Shown here in pieces: positions 26,039-36,920 of a stretch of 64,000 nt of DNA; positions within the stretch are counted from its first letter, which is position 1; the number at the start of each line of letters is the position of its first letter. This DNA comes from Akkermansia sp. Its GTDB lineage: Bacteria; Verrucomicrobiota; Verrucomicrobiia; Limisphaerales; SIBH01. The stretch covers positions 21,581 to 85,580 of the forward strand of contig JAYVNY010000191.1 of the NCBI GenBank assembly GCA_043758205.1. The letters run 5' to 3'. The position numbers and the translations under genes were made by a program. A model generated the notes under the pieces. The model was not told where the DNA came from. It was given only the letters and a program-made list of their open reading frames with translations, and made no database searches.

Positions 26039-28564
26039 ATGGCTCCTGGCCAACAGCCCGCGCGTGTTGCAGTCGATGGAAAATTTTTCCGTCTCGGCCA
26101 CGAAAAGTTCATTCCCAAAGGAGTGACCTACGGTCCATTTGCCCCCAACGGCAGCGGCGAAACCTTTGGCACACCCGAACAGGCGGCAAAGGACTTCGCA
26201 CAAATCCGGGAACTGAACGCCAACGTCCTCCGGGTTTATTACGTCCCGCCGCTTTGGTTTCTCGATCTCGCGGAACAGCATGGGCTGAAGGTGTTCGTGG
26301 ACATCCCATGGGAAAAGCATCGTTGCTTCCTCGAAACTTATGAAATGAGGGAGGCCGCGCGAGAGAGCGTCCGGGCCGCGGCCCGCGCCTGCGCAGGACA
26401 TCCGGCGCTCTTTGCCTTCAGCGTGGCGAATGAAATTCCCGCAGAGATTGTGCGCTGGCATGGGGCCAGCGAAGCCGCCGAATTCATAGACCATCTGGTT
26501 TCCGAAGTGAAAGCCATTGACGCGGGCGCGCTCTGCACCTTCGCCTCGTTTCCGCCGACGGAGTTCCTCCAGCCCAAAGCCATAGATTTTGTCACCTTCA
26601 ACGTTTACCTCCATGAGCGGGGCGCGTTTGAAAGCTACCTCGCGCGCCTGCAAACGATGGCGAACGACAAGCCCCTGGTCCTCGGCGAATTCGGAGCCGA
26701 CTCGCACCGCGAAACAGAATCGCGCAAATGCGAGATGCTGCGCTGGCAAATCGAAGCCGCCTTTCGCTGCGGCCTCGCCGGCACGGTGCTCTTCTCCTTT
26801 ACGGATGAGTGGTTTCGCGGCGGACAGCAGATTACGGATTGGACCTTTGGCCTCACGACCGGCGAGCGCACGCCCAAGCCGTCGTTTGCTGCCGTGCGCG
26901 ATGCTTATGGGATCGCGCCCTATTTTCCGCTCGCCCGCGCGCCAAAGGTTTCCGTGGTCGTGGCGAGTTACAACGGAGCCGTGACGTTGCGCACCTGCCT
27001 GCAATCGCTCATCCGGCTGAATTATCCGGATTACGAAGTCATCCTGGTTGATGATGGGTCAACCGACACGACGCCGCAGATCGCTGCGGAGTTTCCAACC
27101 GTGCGCAACATCCGGCAAAACAACTTGGGTCTTTCGGCCGCGCGCAATACCGGCATCGCCGCCGCGACGGGAGAGATCGTGGCCTTCACGGACTCGGACT
27201 GCCGAGCGGACGAAGATTGGCTTTACTACCTCGTCAACGAGTTTCTCCGTTCGGACTTTGTCGGAGTGGGTGGTCACAACTTCCTGCCGCCCGAGGATTC
27301 GGCTGTCGCCGCAGCCGTGCTGGTCTCGCCCGGCGGTCCCGCGCATGTGATGTTGAGCGACCGTGAAGCCGAACACGTTCCCGGCTGCAACATGGCGTTC
27401 TACAAGTGGGCGCTGGACCAGATAAAAGGTTTCGATCCCTTGTATCGCAAGGCGGGCGATGACGTGGACCTTTGTTGGCGCTTGCAGGAGCTGGGTTACA
27501 AAATCGGTTTCGCGGCCAGCGCCTTTGTGTGGCACTACCGCCGATCTACGGTGAAGGCCTACCTGAAACAACAGGCCGGCTACGGCGAAGCCGAGGCGCT
27601 GTTGCAGCAGAAACATCCTGAGTATTTCAATGTGCTCGGCAGCGGGGTCTGGCGCGGGCGCATCTACGGGGCCGGGCTTCCGGGCATCGTGCTTCAGCGG
27701 GCCGTCATTTACCACGGCGTCTTCGGCAGCGGTTTTTTCCAGAAGCTTTACGCGCGCGAACCCTCATTTGCGCTGATGGTTTTCACGTCGTTGCAATTCT
27801 ACGCTTTCGTCACACTGCCGCTTCTGTTCCTGGCCAGTTGGTGGATCGGTTTCCTGCCGGTGGCATTTCTCGCACTGGGACTGTCAGTGGGTGTGTCTGT
27901 CGTGGCCGGAATGCAAGCCTCGCTTCCCGCCGACCGGACCCGGGTGTGGTCGCGGGCGCTCGTGGCGCTGATGTTTTTCCTGCAACCATTGGTGCGCGGC
28001 TGGGCGCGTTACAAACGCCACCTTCTGGTGGCGCAACCGAAAAGGTCGCCGGGGCATTTTGAAACTGCGGCGACGACGTTCACAAATCCGTTCTGCTTCT
28101 GGTCCCGCGGCACCGAGCGCTACGCTTTCATCGAGGCTGTTCAGCTCGAACTGGCGCCAAGCGGATGGGAACACCGCATTGATTCAGGCTGGGATGAGTT
28201 CGATGTGGAAATCACCACAAACCGCTGGAGCACGGCCCGACTCACGACGGTTCACGAGGAACTGGCGGCAGGACGCCGGTTTTTCCGCTGCCGCCTCGAC
28301 ACCCGATCATCTTGGACAAGCTGGTTGCTGATCACCCTGTTGGCACTCGCCAGTTCATTCGCCGTCCTCCTGTTCCGCGAACAACTGCCTTACGTTTGGT
28401 TCGCCCTCGCCCTCGTGCCGATGGCGCTCCTGTTCGTGGCCACGGAGGAACGTGACCAGAGCGAAGCGATCGCCGCCTTGGTCGCCACGGCAGCCCGCCG
28501 ACTTGGATTTGAGGATTGGCACGGCGAACCTTCGCAACACCCGGCCAGCATCACGGCTTCCTGA
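26039..28564 (+). CDS. Fusion protein: clan GH-A-like TIM-barrel glycosidase + GT2 glycosyltransferase + C-terminal multi-TM domain
   Basis: The N-terminus has FSVANEIP (NE acid/base-like) and LVLGEFGADS (nucleophile-like). The middle is KVSVVVASYNG...YEVILVDDGSTD...AFTDSDC...GDDVDLCWRL (GT2). The C-terminus has ~5 hydrophobic segments. Confidence 0.85.
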   Translation: MAPGQQPARVAVDGKFFRLGHEKFIPKGVTYGPFAPNGSGETFGTPEQAAKDFAQIRELNANVLRVYYVPPLWFLDLAEQHGLKVFVDIPWEKHRCFLETYEMREAARESVRAAARACAGHPALFAFSVANEIPAEIVRWHGASEAAEFIDHLVSEVKAIDAGALCTFASFPPTEFLQPKAIDFVTFNVYLHERGAFESYLARLQTMANDKPLVLGEFGADSHRETESRKCEMLRWQIEAAFRCGLAGTVLFSFTDEWFRGGQQITDWTFGLTTGERTPKPSFAAVRDAYGIAPYFPLARAPKVSVVVASYNGAVTLRTCLQSLIRLNYPDYEVILVDDGSTDTTPQIAAEFPTVRNIRQNNLGLSAARNTGIAAATGEIVAFTDSDCRADEDWLYYLVNEFLRSDFVGVGGHNFLPPEDSAVAAAVLVSPGGPAHVMLSDREAEHVPGCNMAFYKWALDQIKGFDPLYRKAGDDVDLCWRLQELGYKIGFAASAFVWHYRRSTVKAYLKQQAGYGEAEALLQQKHPEYFNVLGSGVWRGRIYGAGLPGIVLQRAVIYHGVFGSGFFQKLYAREPSFALMVFTSLQFYAFVTLPLLFLASWWIGFLPVAFLALGLSVGVSVVAGMQASLPADRTRVWSRALVALMFFLQPLVRGWARYKRHLLVAQPKRSPGHFETAATTFTNPFCFWSRGTERYAFIEAVQLELAPSGWEHRIDSGWDEFDVEITTNRWSTARLTTVHEELAAGRRFFRCRLDTRSSWTSWLLITLLALASSFAVLLFREQLPYVWFALALVPMALLFVATEERDQSEAIAALVATAARRLGFEDWHGEPSQHPASITAS

Positions 28565-28695: not shown

Positions 28696-29285
28696 AACAA
28701 CCCAAGCAAACGAAAATACAAACGCTACGGTCATCTTCGAGCGCAAGGCGTACGTCGAAAAAGTGTTTTCGGCGCTCGGCGCTCTCAAGCTGCGCTACTG
28801 GATTCACGAGGGCTTGAAGCTGCACAGCCGGGAAATTCGCCAATAGATCGGGCCATTCACGTTCTTGCATCACCCGGAGAAGCGATCCCGCTTCATTGCG
28901 TGCGTGAGCGGATTGATTACCGCCATCCCCTTCACGCTGATGGTGTCAGCGGTGCGCAAGCAGGAGCATCGTGATCGCTACGGAGCGGAGGCCATGAATC
29001 GTTACGACCTGGCCCTCGAATCCGTGATGGATCGCGTCCATCATTTCCTGCGGCTCGAAAACGAGACGGGCCTTCCTCTCGTCGCGGAAGCGCGCGGGCG
29101 GAACGAGGACAGGGCTTTGGAAAATGTCTTCCTGCGGATTCTCTTCTCGGGTACGCGGACCCTGGGCCGTGAGAAGTTTCAGGATTTGACCTGCCCGCTG
29201 GTGTTTCGTTCCAAGCGCGACAACATCGCGGGCATCCAGGTCGCCGACTTGTGCGCGTATCCGTGCGCGCGGCATGTTCTGGAGT
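28696..29285 (+). pseudogene. DUF3800-like gene remnant (N-terminus missing, in-frame TAG, 3' end cut)
   Basis: The frame reads ...VIFERKAYVEKVFSALGALKLRYWIHEGLKLHSREIRQ*IGPFTFLHHPEKRSRF...SKRDNIAGIQVADLCAYPCARHVL. The TAG is at 28844-28846. Similarity stops at ~29285, where the antisense integrase fragment begins. Confidence 0.5.
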
Positions 29286-29591
29286 GTAGAGGTCGTTCAT
29301 GGCTTGGGAGGAATGGCCGGTCAGCTTCATGCGGATTTCCCCGGCCATGCCGGCATTCGCCAGTGCGGAATTAAAACTGTGCCGGAGGGAATGGAAGGTC
29401 CGCTTGGAGAACAGATGCGTCCCTTTGCCGGCGACGGTCATGGGATCAAGGCCCGCCCTCATGACGATGCGTTTGAAGCCCTCGCTCAGTCCGTGATTGC
29501 CTCCCAGCCCATTGTTCGCAAGGGCAGGGCCGAGGAACCCCTCGGTCCCGAATTGGGAGAGACCCGCGAAGCCCATCGGCACGCTGCTCAA
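29286..29591 (-). pseudogene. Tyrosine recombinase (phage integrase family) C-terminal fragment
   Basis: GLSEGFKRIVMRAGL...RTFHSLRHSFNSALANAGMAGEIRMKLTGHSSQAMNDLYT carries the HxxR, GH and Tyr catalytic-box pattern. The N-terminal ~2/3 is absent, and the sequence after the Tyr is antisense DUF3800. Confidence 0.65.
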
Positions 29592-29900
29592 CGCGAGGGC
29601 GACAGCGCCTGGCCATCAACCCTGCTGCACGGCGCGCTGCGGATGCGCTGATACAGCCAGGCCTTGGCAAAGATCCAAGGCCGTTGCACGCTCTTTTCGG
29701 AAATGTCCAGAGATGCGGCGATTTCGGCGTCTTGCATGCCCATGAAGAATTTCATCTTCACAATTTGCGCTCGCACCGGATCCTCGGCCTGCAATTCCTC
29801 CAGGGCTTCGTTCTCGGCCGGCAGCTTGTCATCCCCCACTTCCACGGCCTGCTCGACGAGGATGTCGGACTGGATTTCCCATTGAGAAGCTTGGAGGAAT
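29588..29900 (-). pseudogene. ECF sigma factor fragment (region 4 only)
   Basis: ENEALEELQAEDPVRAQIVKMKFFMGMQDAEIAASLDISEKSVQRPWIFAKAWLYQRI matches the sigma-4 / TIGR02999-style C-terminus. No credible region 2 lies upstream. Confidence 0.5.
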
Positions 29901-30188
29901 TCACCAATTCTTGGCGTGTAAGAGTAGAATTTGACAAAGCGACCGGGCCTCCGCACCGTCACACCTAAGTTCGGGATTCGGGTCTCACGATAACCGCAGT
30001 CGTGTGTGAACATCGCGCTGCTCAACAACCGGCCAAGTATTTCAAGAAAATCAAGCAAGCGCAGAAGACCCCTGAGAAGAAGCAAGCAGGTTCACTTCTG
30101 GGCGGCAGCGTCGCGGGTGCGCTGCCGCCGTCCCGCTGTCTTCACCTTCAGTGTAATTGGGCGCGACCCTCTGCGTCAGCTTGGTTGA

Positions 30189-30734
30189 ATGAGCATGATT
30201 GAAAAGCATCTGTTGCAACACCTGAACGAGTTCACGGGGTTCGCCCGCAAGCGGCTGGCCGACCCGGAACTCGCCGACGATGCCGTGCAGGAGAGCCTGC
30301 TCAAAGCGTTGAAGGCGTCCGGCACCATGCGCGACACGGAGAACGCGAAGGCGTGGTTCTACCGCATCCTGCGGCGCACCATCATCGACCTGTATCGCCG
30401 CCGCGATGTGCAGAAGCGGGCCGTGGCCCGGATGGAACGCGAACTGGATTCACCGCCGACGCCGGACGAAGAGCGCGTGACGTGCGGCTGTCTTGAGAAG
30501 CTGATTCCGACCTTGAAGCCTGAATACTCAACGCTCGTGCGTCGGCTCGACTTGAATGGCGAGGCGTTGGAACCGGTCGCCGCGAGCCTCGGCATCACGA
30601 CAAACAATTTGAAAGTCCGGCTGCATCGCGCCCGCAGGCAGTTGAAGGAGCGCGTCACTCAAACCTGTCGCGTGTGCGCGAAGCACGGCTGCCTCGATTG
30701 CACCTGCGACACAATTTCCGAACGAAAGGACTGA
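30189..30734 (+). CDS. ECF sigma factor with Cys-rich C-terminal tail (CorE-like, putative metal-responsive)
   Basis: Region 2 DDAVQESLLKAL..WFYRILRRTIIDLYRRR. Region 4 ASLGITTNNLKVRLHRARRQLKE. Linker CGC (VTCGCLEK). Tail TQTCRVCAKHGCLDCTCD. The gene ends 3 nt before the copper ATPase. Confidence 0.85.
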   Translation: MSMIEKHLLQHLNEFTGFARKRLADPELADDAVQESLLKALKASGTMRDTENAKAWFYRILRRTIIDLYRRRDVQKRAVARMERELDSPPTPDEERVTCGCLEKLIPTLKPEYSTLVRRLDLNGEALEPVAASLGITTNNLKVRLHRARRQLKERVTQTCRVCAKHGCLDCTCDTISERKD

Positions 30735-30737
30735 CTT

Positions 30738-33275
30738 ATGGCCAAAGACCCCATCTGCGGAATGACGGTGGACGAGTCTTCACCGCTGCGTGCCGAGCGC
30801 GACGGGCAGACGTTTTACTTTTGCAGCGAGCACTGCCGACAGAAGTTCGTCGGGCAGACGCGGGCTGGGAAAACGATTCCGCTCACTCCGACCGACACAG
30901 GCGGCTGCTGCGGTGGTACGAAAACCAAACCCGTGACAGGCTCCAACGATTGCTGCGGCGGCAAGCAAGAGCCAACGCAGCACGAACCCGCCGCGCACGA
31001 ACATTCACAGCACGGGCCCGCAGCAGTGAAGCCGTCCGCTGCCGCGAAATACTTCTGCCCGATGTGTCCCGGCGTGGAGTCGGACACGCCGGGTGATTGT
31101 CCGAAGTGTGGCATGGCGCTGGAAAGGAATCCGGCGTGGGTTGACCCCGTAGCGGGCAAGGTCATCTACACCTGCCCGATGCACCCCGAAGTGCAACAAG
31201 ACCATCCCGGCGACTGTCCGAAGTGTGGGATGGCCTTGGAACCGAAAACCATTTCGGCGGCACCCGAAGAAGAGAATCCCGAACTCACCGATATGACGCG
31301 CCGGTTCTGGATTGGCGCGGCGCTCACGTTCCCCGTGTTCGTGATCGCGATGGCGCACATGATTCCGGCGCTACGTCATCAAGACTGGTTGATGAGTGAT
31401 GCCTCGCGGTGGATTCAGTTTGTGTTCTCAACTCCGGTTGTGGCGTGGGCGGGCTGGCCGTTTTTCAAACGCGGTTGGCGTTCCATCGTCCACCGCAGCC
31501 TGAACATGTTCACGCTCATCGCCATTGGCGTCGGCACGGCCTACGTGTTCAGCGCCGTGGCGGTGCTGGCCCCCGGTTTGTTCCCGCCATCGTTCGCGCA
31601 TGGCGGCAAGGTCGGCCTCTACTTCGAGGCGGCGGCGGTGATTATCGTGCTCGTGCTGCTCGGCCAGATGCTCGAACTGCGGGCGCGGAGTAAAACCGGC
31701 AACGCTCTTCGCGCACTCTTGAATCTCGCGCCGACGAAAGCGCGGGTCGTTTTCGGCGGCGACGAAATCGACACGCCCTTGGAACAAGTGCGCGTGGGTC
31801 AACAACTTCGCGTGCGCCCCGGCGAAAAGATTCCGGTCGATGGCGTCGTGCTCGATGGAAAAACTTCCATCGACGAGTCGATGATTACTGGTGAACCGAT
31901 TCCAGTGGAGAAAAGTGTCGGCGACAAAGTGACCGGCAGCACGCTCAACACGACGGGCAGCATTCTCGTGCAAGCCGAGCGCGTCGGCAGCGACACCGTG
32001 CTCGCCCGCATCGTGCAGATGGTCGGCGAAGCGCAACGCAGCCGCGCCCCGATTCAGGCGTTGGCCGACAAAGTGGCCGGATGGTTCGTGCCCGCCGTGC
32101 TGGCGATTGCCGTGCTCACGTTCGTCGCCTGGTTCGTGTGGGGGCCGGAGCCTCGACTAGCCTACGCCATCGTCAATGCCGTCGCCGTGCTCATCATCGC
32201 CTGCCCGTGCGCCCTTGGACTGGCCACGCCCATGTCCGTGATGGTCGGCGTCGGGCGCGGCGCTCAGTCCGGTGTGCTGATACGCAATGCCGAGGCCATC
32301 GAGATGATGGAGAAGGTGAACACCGTGGTTGTGGACAAGACCGGCACGCTCACCGAAGGCAAGCCGCGCCTCACGCAAGTTCTCCCGGTCAACGGCGTGC
32401 GCGAAGATGAACTGTTGCTGGCCGCTGCTTCGGTTGAACAGCGCAGTGAACACCCACTGGCGTCTGCGATTGTTCTGGGCGCGAAGGAGCGCGGTGTGAA
32501 GGCGCAGCCCGTCGTTGATTTTCAGTCCATCACTGGCGGCGGAGTAGTCGCCAAGTTGGGCAACAAGGAAATCGCGGTGGGCAAACTCAAATTCTTGCAA
32601 GAGCGCGGCGTGACCGGACTGGAAACCGTCGAGCAGCAAGCGAGCGTGTTTCAAGCCGAAGGACAGACCGCGATGTTCGTCGCCATCAACGGCCAGCCTG
32701 CGGGTGTCATCGTCGTCGCCGACCCCATCAAGAAGTCCACGCCGGAAGCCATCGAACAACTGCACCGGCTCGGTTTGAAAATCATCATGCTCACCGGCGA
32801 CAACGAGCGCACCGCCCGCGCCGTCGCGCAGAAACTCGGCATTGACGAAGTGGAAGCGGGTGTTGAACCGGCGCGAAAGCACGAGCGCATCCAACAACTC
32901 CGGCAGCAGGGCCGCATCGTGGCGATGGCCGGTGATGGCATCAACGACGCGCCAGCACTCGCCGCCGCGCATGTCGGCATCGCAATGGGCACCGGCACTG
33001 ATGTCGCAATGGAGAGCGCGGGCATCACGCTCGTCCAAGGCGACCTGCGGGCCATCGCGAAGGCCATCACGCTCAGTCGTTCGATGATGCGAAACATCCG
33101 GCAGAATCTTTTCTTCGCTTTCATCTACAACGCGCTTGGCATTCCGCTCGCCGCCGGTGCGCTCTACCCGTTCTTCGGCGTGCTGCTCAGTCCCATCATC
33201 GCAGGTGCGGCGATGAGCCTGAGTTCCGTCTCGGTCATCTCGAACGCGCTGCGGCTACGGCGGGTGAATCTGTAG
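30738..33275 (+). CDS. copA: Copper-translocating P1B-type ATPase with YHS/TRASH and two Cys4 metal-binding N-terminal modules
   Basis: DPICGMTVD...[12 protein letters not shown] (YHS/TRASH). [23 protein letters not shown] and [25 protein letters not shown]6 CPC ([12 protein letters not shown]), [17 protein letters not shown]. Confidence 0.95.
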
Positions 33276-33656
33276 GGAGGCTCGACTCCGTGGATAATTT
33301 TGGAACCAAGCGGCGCATTTGGCTGGCTGGCTTGCACAACCGTCTTTTTCAGGCAGCCCGTTGGCCGATGGGTTCAACGACGGCGTTCGTCGGCCAAGGC
33401 GAAGAACTCCGGCACGCACCACACTCCGGTGGTGTGTGCGCGGGAGCGCGATGTGGACGGGGAATGTTCGCGCGCTCCTGTGCGTCGCTTTTCCCCTCGC
33501 CGTTCGTTTTGGTTCACCAAGGTCAGTCCATATTTTCCTTCCCGGCGCAATCTGGTTCACTCCGTCCGTGCTCGGCGATTGAAAAAAGGCCCATCAAAAA
33601 AGATGAACTGATTTACTCCGAACTCGCGCGCCTCCACCCTGACCGCAGACAACTGC

Positions 33657-34679
33657 ATGAAAGCCAATCAAGCGAGCGGGACGAGCAAGCACCGACCCCG
33701 GCGGGGAGATGATTCTGGCGCGGGCGACGCTTGGTGCCAACTGCTGGGCCTAAACGACCAACTCCGCTTCGAACCGCATGACATCGCCGCGCAACTCGAC
33801 GCGCGCGGGCGCTACGATGTACCGCTCGACGAGGAATTTCCGCTGCTCATCAAACTCTTTCGCTACACCTCGCGGCGGCACACGCGCGGCGCGACGTGGC
33901 ACGAGCGGCTCGAGCTGTTTCTGCCGCTGGACGGCCCGGCGCGCTTCCGCATGGGCGAGCAGGAAGTCGAGTTGCAGGCGGGCGAACTGCTCGTGGTGGA
34001 CAATCTCAAGCTGCATCACGTCGTGGATTTTCCGGGCTTCGACACGCGCGTCATCGTCATCAGCTTTCTGCCGGAGTTCGTGTACAGTCTCGGCTCGCCG
34101 TCTCACGACTACGCCTTCCTGCTGCCGTTTTACTCGAAGGTCGAGCGGCGTCCGCATGTCGTGCGGAGCACCGACGCCGCGGCTCCGGAGGTGCATGGGG
34201 CACTGGTGCGATTGTTGCAATGTTACTTCGGCGGCGCGGCCAAACCGTTTTATGAGGCCGGCTCGAAGGCGTTTCTGCTCGAACTGCTCTACCATCTCGC
34301 CGCGCACTTCCGCGCCTCGGCGGTGGTGAAATGGGAATTCATGCGCCAGCAGGAACGGTCGTTGCGGCTCAAGAAACTTTTCGATCACATCAGCGCGCGC
34401 GCGGCGGAAAAACTCTCCGTCGGCGCGGCGGCGCGGCTCGTCGGGATGAGCGCGCCGCAATTCATGAAGACCTTCAAGCAGGTCGCGGGCATGACGCTCG
34501 TCGCGTACCTGAATCACGTCCGCCTCGCCCGCGCCGCGCGCCTGCTGCGCGAGACGAATCGCTCCATCGCCGACATCGCCGACGCGACGGGCTTCTCCGA
34601 CCAGAGCTATTTCGACAAGCGGTTCAAGCGGGCCTTCGGACTGACGCCGAAGACGTTTCGCGCGGAGGCCGTCCGGTAA
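33657..34679 (+). CDS. AraC-family transcriptional regulator (cupin-like N-domain + HTH)
   Basis: C-terminal AraC HTH: LSVGAAARLVGMSAPQFMKTFKQVAGMTLVAYLNHVRLARAARLLRETNRSIADIADATGFSDQSYFDKRFKRAFGLTP. Confidence 0.9.
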   Translation: MKANQASGTSKHRPRRGDDSGAGDAWCQLLGLNDQLRFEPHDIAAQLDARGRYDVPLDEEFPLLIKLFRYTSRRHTRGATWHERLELFLPLDGPARFRMGEQEVELQAGELLVVDNLKLHHVVDFPGFDTRVIVISFLPEFVYSLGSPSHDYAFLLPFYSKVERRPHVVRSTDAAAPEVHGALVRLLQCYFGGAAKPFYEAGSKAFLLELLYHLAAHFRASAVVKWEFMRQQERSLRLKKLFDHISARAAEKLSVGAAARLVGMSAPQFMKTFKQVAGMTLVAYLNHVRLARAARLLRETNRSIADIADATGFSDQSYFDKRFKRAFGLTPKTFRAEAVR

Positions 34680-34746: not shown

Positions 34747-36165
34747 ATGAACCCGTTTCGCATCGCCATCGTGCTCGCCTTGGGCTGCCTCATCGCCGCC
34801 GCCGCGCCTCTGCCGCGCCTCAAGGTCTCCGCCAATCGTCGCTTTCTTGTCACCGCCGACGGCCAGCCGTTCTTCTATCTGGGCGACACGACGTGGGAAC
34901 TCTTTCATCGCCTGAATCGTGAGGAGGCGATCCAGCTGTTCGAGAATCGCGCGGCGCGAAAGTTCAACGTGCTCCAGTCCGTCGCCATCGCGGAACTCGA
35001 AGGCCACACCGATCCGAACGCCTACGGCCATCGGCCGTTCGTCGATCTCGACGTGACCAAGCCGGACGTGAAGGACGGCCCGGCCAATGATTACTGGGAC
35101 CATGTGGACTTCATCGTGCGCGAGGCGAACGCGCGCGGACTCTACATCGGCTTCCTGCCGACGTGGGGCCGCTTCTGGCATGACACGAATCAGGGTCGCA
35201 AACCGCTCTTCACCGTCGCCAACGCCGAGACCTACGGCGAGTGGCTCGGCCAACGATACAAGGACGCGGGCCTAATCTGGATTCTCGGCGGCGACCGGGG
35301 CGTGGACAACGACGAGCAGAAAGAAATCATCCGTGCGATGGCGAAGGGCTTGCGCAAGGGCGACGGCGGCAATCATCTGATCACACTTCATCCGAACGGC
35401 GGTTCCGGCTCGTCGAAAACTTTCCACGACGACGCGTGGCTCGACTTCAACATGCGGCAGAACGGTCACGGCACCGAATTCACCGGGCGCTACGATCAGA
35501 CGCGCGCCGATTACGACCGCACGCCCGTCAAGCCGGTCCTTGATGGCGAGCCGATTTACGAAGATCATCCCGTGTCCTTCAATGCGAAGAGCCTCGGTCA
35601 CTCCATCGCCGCCGACGTGCGCCGTCCGCTCTATTGGGATTTGTTCGGCGGCGCCTTCGGCCACACCTACGGGCATCACTCGGTCTGGCAGATGTGGTCG
35701 CCGGGCAAGGGACCGATCAACAACCCGCTTCTGCCGTGGAGCGACGCCATCAACCAACCCGGCGCGGCGCAGATGCAGCATGGCCGCGCGCTCATGGAAT
35801 CGCGCCCGTTCCTCACCCGCATCCCGGACGACTCGGTGCTCGTCACGGACCTCGTGGCGACGAGCGTGCCCGGCACCGGCACGCGGCACTTCGCCGCCAC
35901 GCGCGACGAGTCGGGCAGCTACGCGATGGTCTATGCCCCGGTGGGGCGCGCGTTCAAAGTCCACATGGAGAAGATCACCGGCGCGCAGGTGAAGGCGTGG
36001 TGGTTCAATCCGCGCGACGGCTCGGCGAAACTTCTCGGCGAATTTCCGAACACGGGCGAACGCGAGTTTCTTTCCCCCGACAAGGGCGAGCACCTCGACT
36101 GGGTGCTGGTCCTGGATGACGCAGCGAAGAATTTTCCCGCGCCGGGCAAACTGCTCAAGCCATGA
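34747..36165 (+). CDS. Glycoside hydrolase family 140-like (DUF4038 + collagenase-binding-like C-domain)
   Basis: Signal peptide, then [37 protein letters not shown]...[11 protein letters not shown], which is characteristic of DUF4038/GH140 as I recall it. Confidence 0.8.
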
Positions 36166-36920
36166 GCAAGACCTTCAGAAGCGGCCTCTTGCTGTTCGTC
36201 TCAATGGCGGCGCTGGCGGCGGCGGATGAACCGCTGCCTCGTTACCACGAACTGCGCCTCTACACCGTCGCGTCGAACAAAATGGACGGCGTGCTGGAAC
36301 GCTTCCGGGAAACAGTCGATCCGGTGCGGCAAAAGCACGGCATCCGGACTGTGGGCTACTGGACCGCGCCGGGGACCACGAACGGCGGCACGTTCGCGTA
36401 TCTGATGGCGGCCGCGAGCAAGGAAGAATTGCAGAAGCAGGAGAAGGCGTTCGGTGCCGACGCGCAGTTCAAGGAAGGCTACGCGGCGTCGAATCAGAAG
36501 CACGGCAAGAACGTGGACAAAATTGTGGCGCTGCCGCTCGCCGTGGACGCGACGGCGACGTTTGACTTCGCGGCGTCCGCCAGGCCGCGCGCTTTCGACC
36601 TGCGCGTTTACTCCGTGCTGCCCGGCAAGCTCGACAAGTTCCGCAATCGCTGGCGTGATTTCGCGGTAGCAATCTACGAACGGCACGGCCTGCACAGCGT
36701 CGGTTGGTGGGTGGCGGAGAAGAAGGACGCGGACGGCCACGATCAATTCGTCTGCCTGCTCGCCGGTGACAGCGTCGCGGCGATTCAGAAATCCATCAGC
36801 GAATTTCATCAGGACGCCGAGTGGCAGCGCGTCGAGAAAGACACCGAGCAGAACGGCAAGCTGCGCAGCGGAGTAACGGCGCACAAACTAACTCCTACGG
36901 ACTTCTCCAAGTTGAAATGA
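36162..36920 (+). CDS. Secreted tandem NIPSNAP-domain protein
   Basis: Signal peptide [21 protein letters not shown]. Two halves begin YHELRLYTV and [16 protein letters not shown]. The ATG overlaps the previous stop. Confidence 0.75.

Follow-up and report, generated by a model that had tools for sequence, protein, structure and literature searches.

The question raised by this locus is whether an extracytoplasmic function (ECF) sigma factor with a cysteine-rich tail, encoded immediately upstream of a P-type ATPase, senses copper by itself and controls the pump with which it is paired. The two genes occupy positions 30189-33275 of a 64-kb stretch of DNA of verrucomicrobial origin (the whole of this stretch is referred to as the window). 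A previous inspection of the DNA, performed without database searches (the sequence-only reading), had interpreted them as a CorE-like sigma factor coupled to a CopA-type ATPase. Our analysis indicates that the locus is, in all likelihood, a self-contained two-gene copper-resistance operon of the Verrucomicrobiota (approximately 3.1 kb), composed of a CorE-type sigma factor and a Cu(I) pump. The cassette is a further example of an already described system, extended to new lineages. To this we add (i) the CorE residue register, (ii) a promoter consensus, (iii) a probable leaderless, fully autoregulated operon and (iv) the equivalence of the Cys modules of the pump to a structurally solved domain. 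The features of the cassette are as follows:

30152-30177, + strand: predicted ECF-type promoter, with the -35 element TGTAAT (30152-30157), a 16-nt spacer and the -10 element CGTC (30174-30177), whose end is 11 nt upstream of the sigma ATG
30189-30734, + strand: CorE-like ECF sigma gene (181 aa), from the list of open reading frames (ORFs), Pfam and homologues
30483-30491, + strand: codons C99-G-C101, the CxC between sigma2 and sigma4, from conservation; equivalent to CorE C120/C122
30666-30707, + strand: core codons of the Cys-rich domain (CRD), C160-RV-C163-A164-K-H166-G-C168-LD-C171-T-C173, from conservation and in CorE register
30726-30730, + strand: AAGGA, Shine-Dalgarno-like, within the last sigma codons, 7 nt from the ATPase ATG, read directly
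30738-33275, + strand: gene of a P1B-1 (Cu+/Ag+-type) P-type ATPase (845 aa), related to Legionella CopA
30744-30848, + strand: YHS/TRASH domain, ATPase residues 3-37 (Pfam PF04945, E 2.4e-10), conserved in orthologues
30900-31013, + strand: variable linker, residues 55-92, with GGCCGG, DCCGG and a His-rich stretch, recurring in orthologues; of putative role
31047-31124, + strand: HMBD module 1, residues 104-129, four Cys (Pfam PF19335 and motif scan)
31164-31241, + strand: HMBD module 2, residues 143-168, with a Cys3-His set, the counterpart of the core of the Legionella CopA metal-binding domain
32202-32210, + strand: codons of the transmembrane CPC metal site (ACPCA at 32199 in the motif scan)

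The ORF list agrees with the gene order reported by the sequence-only reading, i.e. two ORFs, of which the sigma gene stops 3 nt before the P1B ATPase gene. The sigma stop codon TGA (30732-30734) is followed by CTT and then by the ATPase ATG at 30738, the complete junction being GAA CGA AAG GAC TGA CTT ATG. The location of AAGGA inside the 3′ end of the sigma gene suggests that translation of the ATPase may be coupled to that of the sigma factor. An identical sigma sequence is present on a 23.8-kb metagenome contig, and the nearest genome is a metagenome-assembled genome of the Verrucomicrobiota (locus L011), whose sigma factor shares 95% identity with that of the window.

Pfam analysis of the sigma factor revealed sigma2 and sigma4 domains only (Sigma70_r2, residues 10-73; Sigma70_r4_2, residues 101-152), and the score obtained with TIGR02937 (73.5 bits vs a cut-off of 42.9) is that of a protein with ECF architecture. 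The CGC linker and the Cys tail noticed in the earlier inspection are both present, but the protein does not end in CTCD, as had been stated; it continues for seven more residues (TISERKD). The Cys residues of the tail are arranged in the pattern C160-x2-C163-x4-C168-x2-C171-x-C173, i.e. CxxCAxHGCxxCxC. Altogether, 1682 homologues of the sigma factor were detected. In the best 120 of them (62-94% identity) six of the seven Cys are invariant, and the remaining one, C99, is Cys in 120 of 121 sequences. An alignment of 69 sequences showed that A164, H166, G167, L169 and D170 are each at least 90% conserved. All seven Cys are also invariant over 55 species-level loci, down to 40% identity, a set assembled in part by means of the peptide pattern CAKHGCLD, which inflates the invariance of the tail there. 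Conservation among orthologues had been set beforehand as a check able to overturn the interpretation; the invariance that was found indicates that the Cys residues of the sigma factor are no chance feature.

CorE-like sigma factors (ECF44, now in ECF238) are characterized by a CxC between sigma2 and sigma4, a C-terminal CRD and the lack of an anti-sigma factor (PMC3107203, PMC4937300, PMC6851896, PMC8999054, PMC7826278), and ECF238, which took in ECF44, is regulated via a Cys-rich C-terminal extension and not via an anti-sigma factor (PMC7826278). The functional Cys of CorE are C120 and C122 of the linker, and C181, C184, C189, C192, C194 and C206 of the CRD (PMC3107203, PMC4937300). The linker pair is essential for activity (PMC4937300), while residues 181, 184, 192 and 194 are the four universally conserved Cys of the CRD. 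C189 is the main Cys for copper activation, and is present in about half of the family, in members syntenic with copper genes (PMC3107203, PMC4937300). Ala185 of CorE vs Cys174 of CorE2 separates copper from Cd/Zn sensing (PMC4937300). When 21 is added to the positions of the seven Cys of the window protein, they coincide exactly with C120, C122, C181, C184, C189, C192 and C194 of CorE, a comparison made with published residue numbers and not by sequence alignment. By the same register, A164 corresponds to Ala185 and C168 to C189, i.e. the residues of the copper subtype are present.

The best curated (NCBIfam) matches of the sigma factor were the SigZ models TIGR02959 and NF007215, with scores of 96.1 and 92.9 bits that lie under the trusted cut-offs (168.65 and 212 bits, respectively). 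Identity as a SigZ orthologue was rejected for this reason, and SigZ, which is itself a member of ECF238 (PMC7826278), is considered a relative only. Assignment to an ECF group with a conventional anti-sigma partner had been named as the result that would speak against the CorE-like interpretation; the nearest curated family belongs to ECF238, and neither of the two checks named beforehand overturned the interpretation. A tblastn search of plasmids identified CRD-containing sigma factors of Phenylobacterium zucineum HLK1 (E 7e-27) and of a culture of Roseovarius sp. TM1035 (E 4e-32), which share 36-41% identity with the window protein and align over the full length. Both are among the organisms in Figure 9 of the 2011 paper that founded the family, the match being at the level of the organism. 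In an alignment of six sequences, including both plasmid proteins, C99, C101, C160, C163, H166, G167, L169, D170, C171 and C173 are invariant. The position of C168 is occupied by Phe in both plasmid proteins, which agrees with the limitation of the C189 equivalent to about half of the family. The structures returned by a PDB sequence search with the sigma factor were generic ECF ones only (SigH, SigL, SigE), none of them CorE-like.

Two further observations concern the wider distribution of such proteins. A sigma-70 family protein with about 35% identity to the window sigma factor (E ~1e-14) occurs in approximately 1,400 plasmid records, mostly of Klebsiella, Salmonella and Citrobacter; it may have a Cys-rich tail or may represent an unrelated ECF type such as FecI. 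The counts of "CorE" given in a paper on copper signalling in marine bacteria (PMC10141476) seem to reflect a generic ECF model, and were set aside as uninformative for the CorE-like family.

An ORF and domain scan of the window neighbourhood identified no anti-sigma gene adjoining the sigma gene, and no anti-sigma Pfam family was found among the neighbours in the 55 loci (all 23 downstream families and the 25 most frequent of the 83 upstream ones), in agreement with the earlier remark that no such gene is adjacent. The Pfam families encoded by the immediate neighbours in these loci include P1B ATPases (14 downstream and 6 upstream), DUF4396 (12), CusF (9), HMA and cupredoxin. In one locus (L005), the sigma gene is flanked by genes encoding a multicopper oxidase and CusF, with an outer-membrane factor nearby. 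The window protein therefore combines ECF architecture, the linker CxC, the four universal Cys of the CRD, the copper-subtype residues, the lack of a linked anti-sigma gene and a metal-related neighbourhood. By analogy with CorE, it is probably a copper sensor acting via its own cysteine tail; the Cys conservation, the +21 register, the ECF238 match and the missing anti-sigma gene bear out what had been proposed from the letters of the sequence.

The 12 loci (of the 55) in which DUF4396 proteins adjoin CorE-like sigma genes also drew our attention. In several cases, e.g. L014 (4337-4963), L015 (4386-4985), L021 (4382-4987) and L022 (4398-4979), a gene of about 200 codons, which may be the one carrying DUF4396, is located just upstream of the sigma gene and behind TGTAAY-N16-CGTC. 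This uncharacterised family may belong to the copper regulon and have so far escaped notice there.

The arrangement sigma-(3 nt)-YHS/HMBD-ATPase is conserved in L002, L007, L011 and L017, at 65-95% identity of the sigma factor. The window and its relatives are homologous at the DNA level from 30123-30150 to 33253-33274, the flanks being unrelated; these limits define the conserved unit as promoter, sigma gene and pump gene. The similarity is not uniform along this unit. L007 shares 83% identity with the window throughout, and the L011 segment 4935-8155, corresponding to window 30123-33253, is 90% identical in the promoter-sigma-YHS region (to 30999) and 73% identical over the remaining part of the ATPase gene. 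This mosaic points to a putative recombination breakpoint in the variable CCGG/His-rich linker.

When the sequences preceding the sigma genes were aligned, the motif TGTAAT-N16-CGTC emerged, which has the shape of classical ECF promoters and is predicted to constitute the promoter of the operon. In 54 non-redundant loci (486 kb) the relaxed form TGTAAY-N15-17-CGTY yielded 58 sites vs 6.8 in shuffles, with at least one site in 48 of the 54. The motif is located at the same distance before the sigma orthologues of L011, L007, L002, L017, L019, L020, L024, L025, L031 and L033. Nearly all sites adjoin the sigma gene, being placed (i) before it, (ii) before the first gene of the operon, (iii) between the sigma gene and the next one or (iv) facing a divergent ATPase gene, in which case the motif lies on the ATPase strand. 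The coupling of sigma factor and pump, another element of the sequence-only reading, is thus reinforced by the 3-nt junction conserved in relatives and by a family-wide promoter motif before the operon.

The spacing of the motif differs between lineages. In loci of the Verrucomicrobiota a constant 11-12 nt separate its end from the start of the first gene, in sigma-first operons as well as in front of divergent ATPase genes (e.g. L029, L030, L035, L062 and the window, 30177-30189). In Binatia-like and delta-like loci the distance from motif to start is 25-35 nt and includes AAAGGAG, as a real promoter would predict for these longer leaders. ECF-dependent transcription starts approximately 6-8 nt past the -10 element, so a distance of 11-12 nt would produce a leaderless or near-leaderless mRNA. 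This suggests a lineage-specific use of leaderless transcripts in the Verrucomicrobiota. A scan of the 28.5-34 kb region for sigma-70 promoters and terminators revealed nothing above chance, and a hairpin located past the ATPase gene (33469-33484) was indistinguishable from background in the same scan.

The second gene encodes, by its motifs, its hidden Markov model (HMM) scores and its similarity to CopA, a P1B-1 ATPase of the Cu(I)/Ag(I) type. The translation contains the catalytic motifs DKTGT, TGE, GDGIND and HP (SEHPLA), and its core matches the Pfam E1-E2_ATPase and HAD/Hydrolase domains. The transmembrane signature for Cu(I), i.e. CPC, YN(x4)P and MSLSS (AAMSLSS), is also present. The protein scores 605 bits with the copper ATPase model TIGR01511 (cut-off 397), compared with 411 bits with the Cd model, and its closest solved relative is CopA of Legionella pneumophila (PDB 3RFU; E 5e-265, query residues 138-845). 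Assignment to the E. coli-type CopA equivalog NF007952 was rejected (664 bits vs a cut-off of 1316); the low score results from the lack of an MxCxxC (HMA) domain in the pump. A motif scan of the whole window found no HMA, HMBD, YHS or CRD motifs outside the cassette.

The sequence-only reading had described the N-terminus of the pump as unusually elaborate, with a YHS/TRASH motif, a stretch containing GGCCGG and DCCGG, two Cys4 modules and no classical MxCxxC domain. The inventory was correct with the exception of the second module: module 1 (CPMC...CPKC, residues 107-124) is indeed Cys4, but module 2 (CPMH...CPKC, residues 146-163) is Cys3-His. Pfam PF19335 (HMBD) covers two stretches (E 9.8e-25), GGCCGG comprises residues 55-60 and DCCGG residues 71-75. 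Neither a PF00403 match nor GMxCxxC was found by Pfam and the motif scan of the pump, a feature that is not obligatory: Legionella CopA also has no ferredoxin-like MxCxxC domain (PMC11970713). The segment containing module 2 (residues 138-188) aligns with residues 34-83 of 3RFU and 8OVL (E 3e-19 and 2.6e-14), and nuclear magnetic resonance analysis of this Legionella core (8OVL) revealed a zinc-ribbon-like fold that binds Cu+ and acts as a sensor controlling an autoinhibitory tail (PMC11970713).

The emphasis on the unusual character of this N-terminus was overstated, as HMBD is the Legionella CopA core, the YHS+HMBD combination is abundant, and a similar subtype (His-rich/TRASH-YHS/CPKC/MSLSS) is known in the Rhizobiales (PMC5552934). 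A search with the N-terminal 175 residues yielded 4629 proteins at E ≤ 1e-5. The best 120 of these nearly all have YHS+HMBD, and the named ones are mostly from Verrucomicrobia, Planctomycetota and their relatives, often annotated as "Cu+-exporting ATPase". Orthologues retain the YHS domain and both cores, but the linker varies in length, with 1-3 CCGG and HxH runs, that of the window being shorter. As judged from these comparisons, the N-terminus appears to be a lineage-typical variant common in PVC-group bacteria and no oddity. Short YHS+HMBD proteins of 135-170 aa (P0129, P0221, P0232 and others) are encoded on contigs of 168-828 kb. They may be complete stand-alone genes, and could specify soluble copper-binding proteins related to the N-terminus of the pump.

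Taken together, these features make the following mechanism the most likely one. The metal, which by analogy with CorE is most likely copper, would bind to the thiols of the linker CxC and of the C-terminal CRD. The metal-bound sigma factor would adopt a conformation able to direct RNA polymerase to TGTAAT-N16-CGTC, located before its own gene. A single sigma-ATPase mRNA, most likely leaderless or nearly so, would be produced from this promoter, and translation of the ATPase would be coupled to that of the sigma factor by means of the 3-nt gap and the AAGGA in the sigma 3′ end. Copper would thus raise the amounts of sensor and pump together, in a positive feedback. Cu(I), most likely the exported form, would leave the cell through the CPC/YN/MSLSS pump, and the lowered copper level would shut the system off. 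The N-terminus of the pump (YHS, CCGG/His linker and two cores) would most likely act after translation, as a copper sensor relieving autoinhibition, instead of contributing to the transport route itself.

CorE is switched on by Cu(II) and off by Cu(I), a logic that the window sigma factor may or may not share. Its invariant His166 and Asp170 could provide the non-thiol ligands that the authors of the CorE studies postulated. A bolder version of this scheme, in which the cassette is a minimal, horizontally portable copper module that surpasses the described properties of CorE in having a leaderless mRNA from a promoter abutting the start codon, full autoregulation (unlike CorE and CorE2), His166/Asp170 as N/O ligands discriminating between Cu(II) and Cu(I), and a graded multi-site sensor/buffer in the pump, is tentative, and we regard it as rather doubtful.

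Other explanations of the locus were considered. The Cys cluster could form a structural zinc site or a ZAS-like thiol-redox switch, which would respond to oxidative or thiol stress, or to an anti-sigma factor encoded at a distance, and would make the role of copper indirect. A review likens the CxC and the CRD to ZAS motifs (PMC6851896), the invariant His166 together with the CxxC pairs resembles H-x3-C-x2-C, the tail cannot be placed by AlphaFold2, and remote anti-sigma genes lie beyond what a 64-kb window can show. Nevertheless, such a switch is unlikely: CorE is not induced by H2O2 or diamide, its DNA binding needs copper and deletion of its CRD inactivates it (PMC3107203, PMC4937300), and in the 55 loci, which represent many phyla, the neighbourhood is copper-specific, with no anti-sigma Pfam among the listed matches. 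It is still less probable that the sigma factor is a divalent Cd/Zn sensor of the CorE2 type and the cassette a Zn/Cd resistance unit. Position 164 is Ala in at least 90% of the homologues and not Cys, as at Cys174 of CorE2; the pump has the Cu(I) signature and prefers the copper model to the Cd model by the scores given above; and in relatives the adjoining genes encode CusF, multicopper oxidase, cupredoxin and HMA proteins. These observations were weighed against the variable metal specificity of CorE-like CRDs, which one residue can switch (PMC4937300), the weak response of CorE to Zn and Cd (PMC3107203) and the fold that both N-terminal modules of the pump, Cys4 and Cys3His, have in common with zinc-binding domains (PMC11970713).

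It might also be argued that the adjacency of the two genes is incidental, and that the ATPase is under the control of another promoter or regulator, given that copA of Myxococcus xanthus is dually regulated, with a dependence on CorE that is not clear-cut (PMC3107203), and that an ATPase gene within 5 kb is missing from about half of the related loci. We consider this extremely improbable, since the 3-nt gap leaves no room for an internal promoter, the junction is conserved across the 65-95% range of sigma identity, a divergent or farther-downstream ATPase gene carries its own copy of TGTAAY-N15-17-CGTY, and the homology with relatives spans exactly the promoter, the sigma gene and the pump gene.

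Several observations weigh against the reading of the locus as a CorE-type copper operon. An AlphaFold2 model of the sigma factor, built with 69 homologues, is confident for sigma2 and sigma4, but residues 164-181 of the tail have predicted local distance difference test values below 50, i.e. no confident structure, and the predicted template modelling score of the model is 0.46. The use of residue numbers for the comparison with CorE and CorE2 and the low SigZ scores, both described above, belong here as well, as does the lack of a counterpart of C206, the sixth Cys of CorE and one of minor importance there. The metal is assigned by analogy, from the residue pattern and the context, and an anti-sigma factor encoded elsewhere in the genome is possible. 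TGTAAY-N16-CGTY has a sole match in the window (30152-30177), and since at least one match also occurred in 22 of 100 shuffles, this single match has no significance of its own; it gains weight through its position and its conservation across loci. No promoter other than the cognate one could be recognised, which leaves basal sigma expression without an evident source. CorE and CorE2 themselves are reported to be only partly or not autoregulated (PMC6851896).

The DNA flanking the cassette is of a different character. Directly upstream there are three overlapping gene fragments (window 28865-30085): a fragment of a DUF3800 gene (28865-29374, + strand), one of a tyrosine recombinase gene, for the C-terminal part (28932-29591, - strand; Phage_integrase profile 114-168 of 172), and one of a PF07638-type ECF sigma gene, for the region-4 end (29588-30085, - strand). 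They look like decayed mobile-element remnants, and together with the unrelated flanks in relatives this suggests that the cassette may have been acquired by horizontal transfer. On the other side, 380 nt without a convincing gene (33276-33656) separate the ATPase stop codon from the gene of an AraC-family regulator (33657-34679). Nearby genes are unrelated to metals and encode a GT2 glycosyltransferase (26039-28564), an apiosidase-like protein (34747-36165) and a NIPSNAP protein (36162-36920).

Among sigma factors that perceive their signal directly, the CorE-like ones are the best understood, with only two members studied, both from one myxobacterium. The copper-type Cys pattern is nearly unchanged across Verrucomicrobiota, Binatia, Ignavibacteria, Calditrichia, Leptospirales and others. 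These results do not alter the prevailing view of copper homeostasis; a known system is extended to new lineages. The consensus TGTAAY-N15-17-CGTY is usable for the prediction of regulons, and a compact unit of sensor and pump is convenient for biochemistry or synthetic biology. If the portable-module version were true, this family (more than 1,600 homologues in many phyla) would be a far wider single-protein copper sensor than the 67 reported members imply, with a defined promoter code.

Of the known systems, the window sigma factor most resembles CorE (MXAN_3426) of M. xanthus, with which it shares the ECF architecture, the linker CxC, the CxxCAxxxCxxCxC spacing, Ala at the specificity position, the lack of an adjacent anti-sigma gene and a link to copper P1B ATPases. 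It differs from CorE in its verrucomicrobial origin and in its tail, which is of approximately 26 residues (38 in CorE) and without C206. In addition, the window gene heads the pump operon and directly follows its cognate promoter, an arrangement that implies full autoregulation; CorE, by contrast, is only partly autoregulated. CorE2 (MXAN_5263) of the same bacterium belongs to the same family and also has CxC and CRD, but the latter has the pattern C-x3-CC-x3-C-x2-C-x-C (Cys169, 173, 174, 178, 181 and 183), with Cys174 at the position of Ala in the window protein; CorE2 senses Cd/Zn and controls a cation diffusion facilitator (CDF) transporter. SigZ of Bacillus subtilis (ECF238 subgroup 9) provides the top-scoring curated HMMs (96 and 93 bits), but it has two C-terminal Cys only and no known metal role, and the window protein scores far under its equivalog cut-offs.

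The pump has two close counterparts. Legionella CopA has the same Cu(I) transmembrane motifs and a non-ferredoxin CPMH...CPxCGM core beside the membrane domain, whereas the window pump has two such cores, and the YHS domain with the CCGG/His-rich linker replaces the disordered autoinhibitory tail. The "P1B-1b" Cu-ATPases of the Rhizobiales (PMC5552934) share with it the YHS/TRASH domain, a His-rich segment, CPKC and CPC/YN/MSLSS; the window protein differs from them in having one YHS domain instead of two, CCGG repeats and a CorE-like sigma gene directly upstream.

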